From positions 998-64,997 of the forward strand of contig JBMFLZ010000002.1 in assembly GCA_049970935.1 (NCBI GenBank): a stretch of DNA of 64,000 nucleotides, written 5' to 3'. Origin of the DNA: Sulfolobales archaeon. GTDB lineage: Archaea > Thermoproteota > Thermoprotei_A > Sulfolobales > AG1. The notes below the pieces were generated by a model, which had not been told where the DNA came from, made no database searches, and saw nothing but the letters and a program-made list of their open reading frames with translations. Each line of letters begins with the position of its first letter. Positions within the stretch are counted from its first letter, which is position 1. This document shows positions 16,673 to 44,023 of this stretch, in pieces. A program made the position numbers and the translations under genes.

Positions 16673-16737
16673 GCTCCCTATATTAAGTATTGGAAAAACA
16701 TATCCTTATTCTTATCAATTTTAATTAATGAGAGAAA

Positions 16738-16813
16738 GGCCGGGGGAGACCCAGCCCTCACCCACTCACCCGCGATTTCCCGCGGGGATTGTCGTGGGGC
16801 TGAGACCCCATCC
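16738..16813 (-). ncRNA. GC-rich structured small RNA with K-turn consensus (class unknown)
   Basis: A 76-nt GC-rich island in an AT-rich spacer. On the minus strand it reads GGGG-UCU-CAGCCC-[CAC]-GA-CAAUC-CCCGCG-GGAAAU-CGCGGG-UGAGUGGGU-GA-GGGCUG-GGUCU-CCCC. The helices are nested, with a 3-nt bulge plus tandem GA/GA next to the 6-bp stem. For this strand, TTTATAA lies about 20-26 nt upstream and a T-rich tract follows. Confidence 0.55.
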
Positions 16814-21234: not shown

Positions 21235-21846
21235 ATGTTGAGAAGATATAGAGCGGATTTGTTTCAAGAATTATCTGAGCCATTAGCTTGGTTAATTGGA
21301 ATATTTCTCTTAATAAATGTCTTCGGAGGTATCTACTATATAAAAACAGATCTTATGTCAGGTATCGCTATCTCAATAGCTATTTTAGTAGGTTTCGTGT
21401 TTCATGAATTGGCTCATAGAACAGTCGCTAACAAACTAGGTTGTAACTCAAGATTTTCTATAGATGCTTTCTCGGTATTAATAACATCTATTATAGCACT
21501 ATTACAAAATGTGCTTCTAGTAACCACATCTCGAGGATTACCATTCATAATAGCTCTCCCGGGTTTTGTTATGAGCTACTGTTTTAACTTGAGAAAAGAT
21601 CTTGAAGGCGTCATAGCATTTGCCGGACCAGCAACGAATATATTGATATCTATAATATCACTACTCATAGCCTCGTTCGTACCTTCAGTGCGCTACTTAG
21701 GAGAATTTATATCTCGTATTAACTCTATGTTGGCTCTATTTAATCTATTACCAATACATCCTCTCGATGGATATAAAGTTATTAGATGGAATATATTTAT
21801 TTGGACAATTTCTCTGATGATCACACTAGTTCTACTGATAGCGTGA
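21235..21846 (+). CDS. M50-type (site-2 protease-like) membrane metalloprotease
   Basis: HELAHR sits in a TM helix and a second motif NLLPIHPLDGYK follows. Polytopic. Confidence 0.65.
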   Translation: MLRRYRADLFQELSEPLAWLIGIFLLINVFGGIYYIKTDLMSGIAISIAILVGFVFHELAHRTVANKLGCNSRFSIDAFSVLITSIIALLQNVLLVTTSRGLPFIIALPGFVMSYCFNLRKDLEGVIAFAGPATNILISIISLLIASFVPSVRYLGEFISRINSMLALFNLLPIHPLDGYKVIRWNIFIWTISLMITLVLLIA

Positions 21847-21916
21847 GTCTCCAATAATTCAACAACTAATTTTTGCGGTAATAATTCTTTTTAAAGTCTT
21901 ACATATTATAGATATT

Positions 21917-21971
21917 GGAGGCGGTGGCGGAGAGAGCCCCCGTGACCGGGGTTCGAATCCCCGCCCGGCTA
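21917..21971 (+). tRNA. Orphan tRNA 3' half with GC-rich leader (split-tRNA gene candidate)
   Basis: Leader GGAGGCGGTGGCGG (21917-21930), AGAGAG, anticodon-stem 3' strand CCCCC, variable GTGAC, T arm CGGGG-TTCGAAT-CCCCG, acceptor 3' strand CCCGGCT, discriminator A (21971). No D arm, anticodon or acceptor 5' strand lies upstream. TTTTTAAAG sits about 25 nt upstream of the leader. Confidence 0.7.
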
Positions 21972-21972
21972 T

Positions 21973-22194
21973 TTAATCCCTCTTAACAACAAGTAATCTT
22001 ATGATCTCATTATTATTGTCTCCATATACAACGCTTAGACCATAATGTCTGAGGTACTTAATGATATCATTGATCATATAATGCTCGTCAATACTTATCT
22101 CTAGAATTATTTTTTCATTACTTTGAATTGAGGATATAATTTGTGGGAGAATTGTTCTGTAATTTGTTTTTGATAACATGTATCTCTTAATCAA
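21973..22194 (-). CDS. TusA/SirA-like small protein lacking the catalytic Cys (tentative)
   Basis: The 73-aa sequence can be aligned to the E. coli TusA pattern, with LPQ in place of CPEP. ...EKIILEISIDEHYMINDIIKYLRHYGLSVV... matches the TusA beta-alpha-beta core. Low certainty. Confidence 0.3.
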   Translation of the reverse strand: MIKRYMLSKTNYRTILPQIISSIQSNEKIILEISIDEHYMINDIIKYLRHYGLSVVYGDNNNEIIRLLVVKRD

Positions 22195-43868: not shown

Positions 43869-43972
<104 letters not shown>

Positions 43973-44023
43973 CTATGATACAGAGTAATTTATCACGATC
44001 CATAGGTATAAACCCCTGTTAGT

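Follow-up and report, generated by a model that had tools for sequence, protein, structure and literature searches.

Split tRNA genes have been reported in seven archaeal species (sources of 2011–2015), including N. equitans, C. maquilingensis, and four Desulfurococcales isolates, and they are central to the debate over whether half-sized genes gave rise to tRNAs or mobile elements split tRNA genes afterwards. The locus examined here, very probably the 3'-half gene of a split, trans-spliced tRNA-Gln(CUG), has likenesses to three described systems. The split tRNA-Asp of A. pernix and T. aggregans, which belong to the same broad lineage (Desulfurococcales/Sulfolobales), has the same 37/38 junction and a 35-nt mature 3' exon (PMC3218864, PMC4390854); its 3' pre-half of ~53–58 nt likewise carries a GC-rich leader and forms a bulge-helix-bulge (BHB) at the junction, and its separate promoter would have a counterpart here in a putative one. 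In N. equitans (Randau et al. 2005), the halves are dispersed, as here, and their GC-rich leaders and trailers are complementary over 12–14 nt; several of its split tRNAs have a 37/38 junction, and a split tRNA-Gln is among them (PMC3218864, PMC4390854). [quoted passage not shown] A tRNA-Gln(CUG) split at 37/38 was not found in the literature searched.

We analyzed a 64-kb stretch of DNA, referred to as the window, from an 82,583-bp contig of a Sulfolobales metagenome-assembled genome (MAG) with the locus tag prefix ACP5I7. A sequence-only reading had described an orphan tRNA 3' half behind a 14-nt GC-rich leader, and such an element is indeed found on the forward strand at 21917–21971, where 55 bases read directly as GGAGGCGGTGGCGG-AGAGAG-CCCCCGTGAC-CGGGG-TTCGAAT-CCCCG-CCCGGCT-A. 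The T arm, the acceptor 3' strand, the discriminator A, and the AT-rich upstream spacer are all present as that reading had it, and the TATA-like sequence that it placed about 25 nt upstream is found as TTTTTAAAG at 21888–21896. The anticodon-stem 3' strand had been read as CCCCC, one base out of register; it is CCCCG, preceded by C38, and the variable loop is the 4-nt TGAC. The 3' exon carries no encoded CCA. The features are as follows, with a slash marking the predicted cut.

21888–21896 (+): TATA-box-like element TTTTTAAAG, read directly, 21–29 nt upstream of leader base G21917; putative promoter
21917–21930 (+): leader GGAGGCGGTGGCGG, 14 nt, outer helix h', pairing with the 5'-half trailer CCGCCACCGCCUCU
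21931–21934 (+): AGAG, 3' strand of the central 4-bp helix in a hand-built hBHBh' model
21935–21937 (+): 3-nt bulge A-G/C with the predicted 3' splice site; C21937 is nucleotide 38
21937–21971 (+): tRNA-Gln 3' exon, 35 nt, from C38 (21937) to the discriminator A (21971)
21938–21942 (+): anticodon-stem 3' strand CCCCG, in the 3' exon
21943–21946 (+): variable loop TGAC, 4 nt, in the 3' exon
21947–21951 (+): T stem CGGGG
21952–21958 (+): T loop TTCGAAT
21959–21963 (+): T stem CCCCG
21964–21970 (+): acceptor 3' strand CCCGGCT, followed by the discriminator A at 21971

An M50-like protease gene (21235–21846, forward strand) and a 73-aa open reading frame (ORF; 21973–22194, reverse strand) border the AT-rich spacer that contains the element. 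In a window of 36% GC, there are only two further GC-rich islands. Its 26-nt T-arm/acceptor string occurs once in the window against zero expected occurrences in shuffled sequence. Neither ARAGORN nor Rfam at the gathering threshold calls a tRNA at 21917–21971, which is consistent with a half gene; in E-value mode, Rfam gives only a sub-threshold match, to the tRNA-like mascRNA model. The other two islands are an intron-containing tRNA-Thr(CGU) at 43869–43973 on the forward strand, whose 31-nt intron sits at the canonical 37/38 position and which ARAGORN missed in default mode and Rfam and the ARAGORN intron mode found, and an ~80-nt island at 16732–16812 on the same strand, in an AT-rich spacer between divergent genes. 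For the latter, the predicted fold is a long imperfect hairpin (–38.7 kcal/mol, z = –2.2); it lacks a credible match in Rfam and is a candidate small structured RNA.

A 5' half with a complementary trailer had been reported missing from the window, and neither a complementary trailer nor an AGCCGGG 5' strand occurs elsewhere in the 64 kb. Searches for AGCCGGG or RGCCGGG, and for a trailer with up to three mismatches, returned only the 3' half itself and coding-sequence noise. A GGCCGGG at 16738 was rejected as a 5' half because it belongs to the unrelated island at 16732–16812.

We then derived a scan pattern from the 3' half and the BHB geometry (AGCCGGG at the start, U8, A14, a GGGG anticodon-stem strand followed by N-U33, and CGCCACCGCC at the end) and applied it to 185,579 genomes, one genome per species. 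Seven stretches matched. One is a chance match inside a Sphingomonadales contig of 69% GC, and the other six are orphan tRNA 5' halves, found in four Sulfolobales/Desulfurococcales MAGs. All six read AGCCGGGTCGTCTAGCGGCCAAGGATGCGGGGCT, then C or T, then TGG, with A or G as the next base and a trailer containing CCGCCACCGCC, the complement of the 3'-half leader. The D arm and the anticodon, which the pattern left unspecified, turned out to be a perfect tRNA-Gln D arm and CUG or UUG. The separate 5' half predicted earlier, with a trailer able to pair with the leader in a BHB, thus exists in related genomes, as halves that start with AGCCGGG and end with CCGCCACCGCC(TCT). The complementary trailer is carried by six 5' halves (L004, L007, L010, L017, L018, and L029); the partner 5' half is laid out as AGCCGGGUCGUCUAGCGGCCAAGGAUGCGGGGCUCUGG-A-CCGCCACCGCCUCU. 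The same scan of a metagenome contig collection returned only two contigs and missed exact matches in three JGI contigs (L017, L018, and L029), so this collection is incomplete and its negatives are weak.

The 5' halves also settle the isotype. A1:U72 had been taken, speculatively, as a sign of initiator tRNA-Met, which would require a CAU anticodon; this identity is ruled out, as all partner 5' halves carry CUG or UUG together with a tRNA-Gln-type D arm. A1:U72 is a feature of archaeal tRNA-Gln recognized by GatDE (PMC2943598), and in combination with A73 it is also a signature of archaeal tRNA-Gln (PMC2943598). Judged by its D arm and anticodon, the partner of the window 3' half is a tRNA-Gln with anticodon CUG, and relatives also have UUG.

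The joined exons give 73 nt; with CCA appended, they are recognized by ARAGORN as a tRNA-Gln(ctg) of 76 bases. For comparison, a crenarchaeal tRNA-Gln(CUG) gene that is intact was found on an IMG/VR contig, a predicted viral sequence (L034:8291–8363, reverse strand; UViG 3300025341_000002), with which the joined sequence shares 64 of 73 positions without gaps. Both the ARAGORN call and this alignment therefore describe a canonical cloverleaf of the needed isoacceptor. Compensatory changes relative to the intact tRNA occur at pairs 50:64 and 28:42, the latter having one side on each half. This contig is unrelated to the other loci, and among the 34 loci examined, in 8-kb blocks, it alone has an intact tRNA-Gln.

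Leader and trailer pair extensively. The leader GGAGGCGGUGGCGG (21917–21930) and the trailer CCGCCACCGCCUCU form 13 Watson–Crick pairs and one G·U, all 14 leader positions are paired with the trailer in RNAcofold, and this GC-rich complementarity has the length (about 12–14 nt) typical of split tRNAs. Exactly 7 nt (4 + 3) on each strand separate this helix from the anticodon stem of the joined tRNA (CGGGG/CCCCG): C32-U33-C34-U35 followed by G36-G37-A on the 5' half, and A-G-A-G followed by A-G-C on the 3' half. In a hand-built hBHBh' model, these nucleotides form the canonical motif, in which CUCU:AGAG is the 4-bp helix and GG/A and AG/C are the 3-nt bulges on either side; the U34 of a UUG half would make a G·U pair in the central helix. 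A BHB of the kind found in split tRNAs can thus be drawn at –44.2 kcal/mol. The RNAcofold dimer shows the 14-bp duplex and the 5' bulge, and its energy minimum of –49.6 kcal/mol, compared with –44.2 kcal/mol for the canonical form, has its pairing shifted by two bases within the AGAGAG/CCCCC repeats, leaving a 2-nt bulge. The predicted splice junction in the canonical model is G37/C38, with C38 at 21937. This junction is favored because the 5' halves are invariant through G37 and have A or G next, because the intact tRNA-Gln(CUG) has the loop CUCUGGC with C38, and because the joined product aligns with that tRNA without gaps.

One variant of the leader, AGAGACGGTGGCGG, was found in a related lineage (L015/L016). 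It is changed at two distal positions and predicts a trailer CCGCCACCGTCTC. A 5' half matching it was not found via synteny, which led only to the L009/L030 lineage with the trailer CCGCCACCGCCACU, unfit for that leader. With AGAGACGGTGGCGG as the one leader variant found, no covariation between leader and trailer is demonstrated.

Both halves occur together in related genomes and samples. The MAG JBMFIR01 (prefix ACP5GI), whose serine hydroxymethyltransferase (SHMT) is 96% identical to that of the window, encodes the 5' half on contig 44 (L004) and, on contig 1 (L011), a 3' half identical to that of the window, leader included, at the syntenic site. Both halves are also present in the JGI metagenome 3300019821 (L012 for the 3' half, L017 and L018 for the 5' half), and the MAG JAGDWN01 carries an identical 3' half. 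In a further JGI metagenome, 3300039096, one contig (L001) shows 99.05% identity to the window across 12 kb, the 55-nt element being unchanged, and another (L029) carries the 5' half. The gene next to this 5' half (P0126) matches ACP5I7_06325, a protein of the window's MAG, at every position over 167 aa. ACP5I7_06325 is annotated as partial; its contig stops 17 codons before the stop codon and ~60–75 nt short of the 5' half. Since that contig ends just short of the site, we infer the 5' half in the window's own MAG from synteny and from the 99%-identical population; it would read AGCCGGG...CUCUGGACCGCCACCGCCUCU and begin some 20 nt past the stop codon. Several other assemblies also break at or near the 5' half, namely L007 (541 nt), L018 (1213 nt), and L017, which begins 36 nt upstream of it. 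Such breaks would be expected if the sequence were repeated, for example in a second, UUG 5' half.

[quoted passage not shown] The tRNA-Asp halves of A. pernix, which are close together and intermediate between cis and trans (PMC3218864), offer a precedent of sorts. Here, no 5' half occurs within the 21.9 kb upstream or the 42 kb downstream in the window. The two halves in JBMFIR01 are on separate contigs, the 3' half more than 55 kb from both ends of its own, so that separate loci are indicated both there and by the window, which contains the 3' portion only. The genes that would lie between them run on both strands, and a conserved TATA-like box precedes each of the two halves, at about –25 to –30. 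We regard a giant intron as the faintest of prospects, and a trans-spliced pair of genes remains the preferred reading.

The 55-nt element is identical in L001, L011–L013, and L031. Between the window and JBMFIR01, the locus DNA is 84% identical and the 71-nt upstream spacer matches at 42 of 71 positions, while the element matches at 55 of 55. A 20-nt block, TAATAATTCTTTTTAAAGTC, around the TATA-like box is identical in the window, L011, L012, and L013, and conserved TATA-like boxes lie ~21–31 nt upstream of 5' and 3' halves alike. In the L015/L016 lineage, where SHMT is 88% identical and the other neighboring proteins 37–64%, the tRNA body, the AGAGAG, and the nine adjacent leader bases are all unchanged. 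The flanking genes (CinA, SHMT, M50-like, ThiF, and GlmS) are housekeeping neighbors in conserved order, syntenic in at least four lineages.

In another related lineage with 88%-identical SHMT (L032/L033; Logan SRR29446201/2), no tRNA half is present around 2244–2248, where a 76-aa ORF and the M50-like gene are separated by 3 nt. The 3' half would therefore have been gained, lost, or moved at this locus within the clade. SHMT synteny in more distant MAGs led to a clade of 74% identity with another gene order and no half nearby.

These patterns can be set against the idea that both halves are relics of a tRNA-Gln(CUG) broken by rearrangement and never rejoined, with CAG read by an intact CUG or UUG gene elsewhere. 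A tRNA-Gln(UUG) could in principle decode CAG, and the related lineage without a half at the locus would be compatible with decay. Relics should decay, however, and the conservation argues against it: the exons, the leader/trailer complementarity, the 4 + 3 nt spacing, and the TATA-like blocks are all kept at locus identities of 84% or less, and pair 28:42 shows a compensatory change across the two halves relative to the intact orthologue. Such an origin appears very unlikely.

A non-functional att-site remnant, in which the 3' part of a tRNA was duplicated by the integration of a virus or plasmid and left behind, is less plausible still, and we consider it highly improbable. Crenarchaeal elements do integrate into the 3' portions of tRNA genes, and A. 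pernix is known to carry partial tRNA fragments (PMC3218864); in addition, the intact tRNA-Gln(CUG) on the IMG/VR contig adjoins virus-like genes. In the window, the 3' portion occurs only once and an intact tRNA-Gln is absent, and there is thus no intact tRNA gene with an identical 3' portion beside an integrated element, the arrangement that the sequence-only reading had named as the sign of such a remnant. No integrase or att partner was found in the window and no mobile-element genes near the 3' half, the housekeeping surroundings being the syntenic ones described above, and the 3' half has no match in IMG/VR. A remnant would not have a non-tRNA leader whose 14 nt can pair with the end of an orphan 5' half, nor would it remain invariant beside diverging spacers. 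As for the viral contig itself, its tRNA-Gln(CUG) has the same acceptor stem and T loop, with virus-like ORFs directly adjacent, and no att duplicate is seen in its 8.4 kb. A tRNA-Gln gene beside such ORFs fits with tRNA-Gln as a possible integration target in related archaea.

For the split tRNA-Gln, a possible pathway can be outlined by analogy with known systems. Its putative TATA-like promoter would drive transcription of the 3' half into a pre-RNA of ~55 nt, and the 14-nt leader would anneal, through the complementarity found here, to the trailer of a 5' half transcribed separately from another contig. Together with the acceptor and anticodon stems, the leader:trailer duplex could form the helix-bulge-helix-bulge-helix, which can be drawn and is not the energy minimum. 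The archaeal tRNA-splicing endonuclease, as in the known pathway, would cut both bulges, and an RNA ligase would connect G37 to C38, giving the junction ...GGGGCUCUGG/CCCCCGUGACC... The normal tRNA-splicing enzymes thus probably process the two half RNAs, cutting and then joining them. The expected product is a 73-nt tRNA-Gln with A1:U72 and A73, to which CCA would be added after joining; from established knowledge, it would be charged by a non-discriminating GluRS and then amidated by GatDE.

Two of the MAGs from Desulfurococcales, WANO01 (L005/L006) and JALXCO01 (L002/L003), each carry two orphan tRNA-Gln 5' halves, one CUG and one UUG. Within each MAG the two are identical through G37 apart from the anticodon difference, and their trailers have CCGCCACCGCC in common with differing 2–3 nt spacers (CAG vs CG). 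Following G37, one MAG has A in both of its 5' halves, and the other has G in both. This sequence pattern suggests either one common 3' half or concerted evolution. No 3' halves of these MAGs occur within the 8-kb blocks read. A broader proposal, which we advance tentatively as possible but rather doubtful, is that the split is old and vertically inherited in an uncultured Sulfolobales/Desulfurococcales clade, with one 3' half and CUG and UUG 5' halves together providing both tRNA-Gln isoacceptors. If true, a multi-lineage series in free-living crenarchaea would for the first time make it possible to follow how a dispersed split tRNA is born, maintained, and lost; the related lineage without a half and the tRNA-Gln beside virus-like DNA bear on splitting as a protection from integration.

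The split tRNA-Gln occurs in uncultured hot-spring-type MAGs with its halves far apart, and since several lineages carry it, comparative analysis is possible. Standard annotation overlooks it, so that such MAGs seem to lack tRNA-Gln(CUG). The nearest comparison within the window is the cis intron of tRNA-Thr(CGU), which has the same 37/38 splice position and for which the same enzymes are expected; its intron end, ...CAAGAG/A, resembles the ...AGAGAG/C before the split tRNA-Gln 3' exon. That intron is a contiguous 31 nt in one transcript, whereas the "intron" of the tRNA-Gln consists of a trailer and a leader on two genes.

Among the known split tRNAs, the tRNA-Asp of A. pernix and T. aggregans differs in isotype (Asp there, Gln here) and in the distance between its halves, which are ~160 nt apart, whereas the tRNA-Gln halves lie on separate contigs and at least tens of kb from one another. 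Unlike that tRNA-Asp, the split tRNA-Gln is common to several genus-level lineages. In the Staphylothermus tRNA-Lys(CUU), the junction is at 30/31, the anticodon is on the 3' half, and the halves are ~4.8 kb apart (PMC3218864). N. equitans is a reduced nanoarchaeal symbiont, whereas the host here is a free-living-type crenarchaeon. The N. equitans tRNA-Gln is split at 32/33 and has the anticodon UUG, compared with 37/38 and CUG here. In the tRNA-Glu(CUC/UUC) of N. equitans, one 3' half serves two 5' halves that differ only at position 34; the CUG and UUG 5' halves of WANO01 and JALXCO01 parallel this pair, and the analogy hints at a combinatorial use of one 3' half in these MAGs. Overall, split tRNA genes are a known class, within which tRNA-Gln(CUG) at 37/38 is a new combination of isotype and position.
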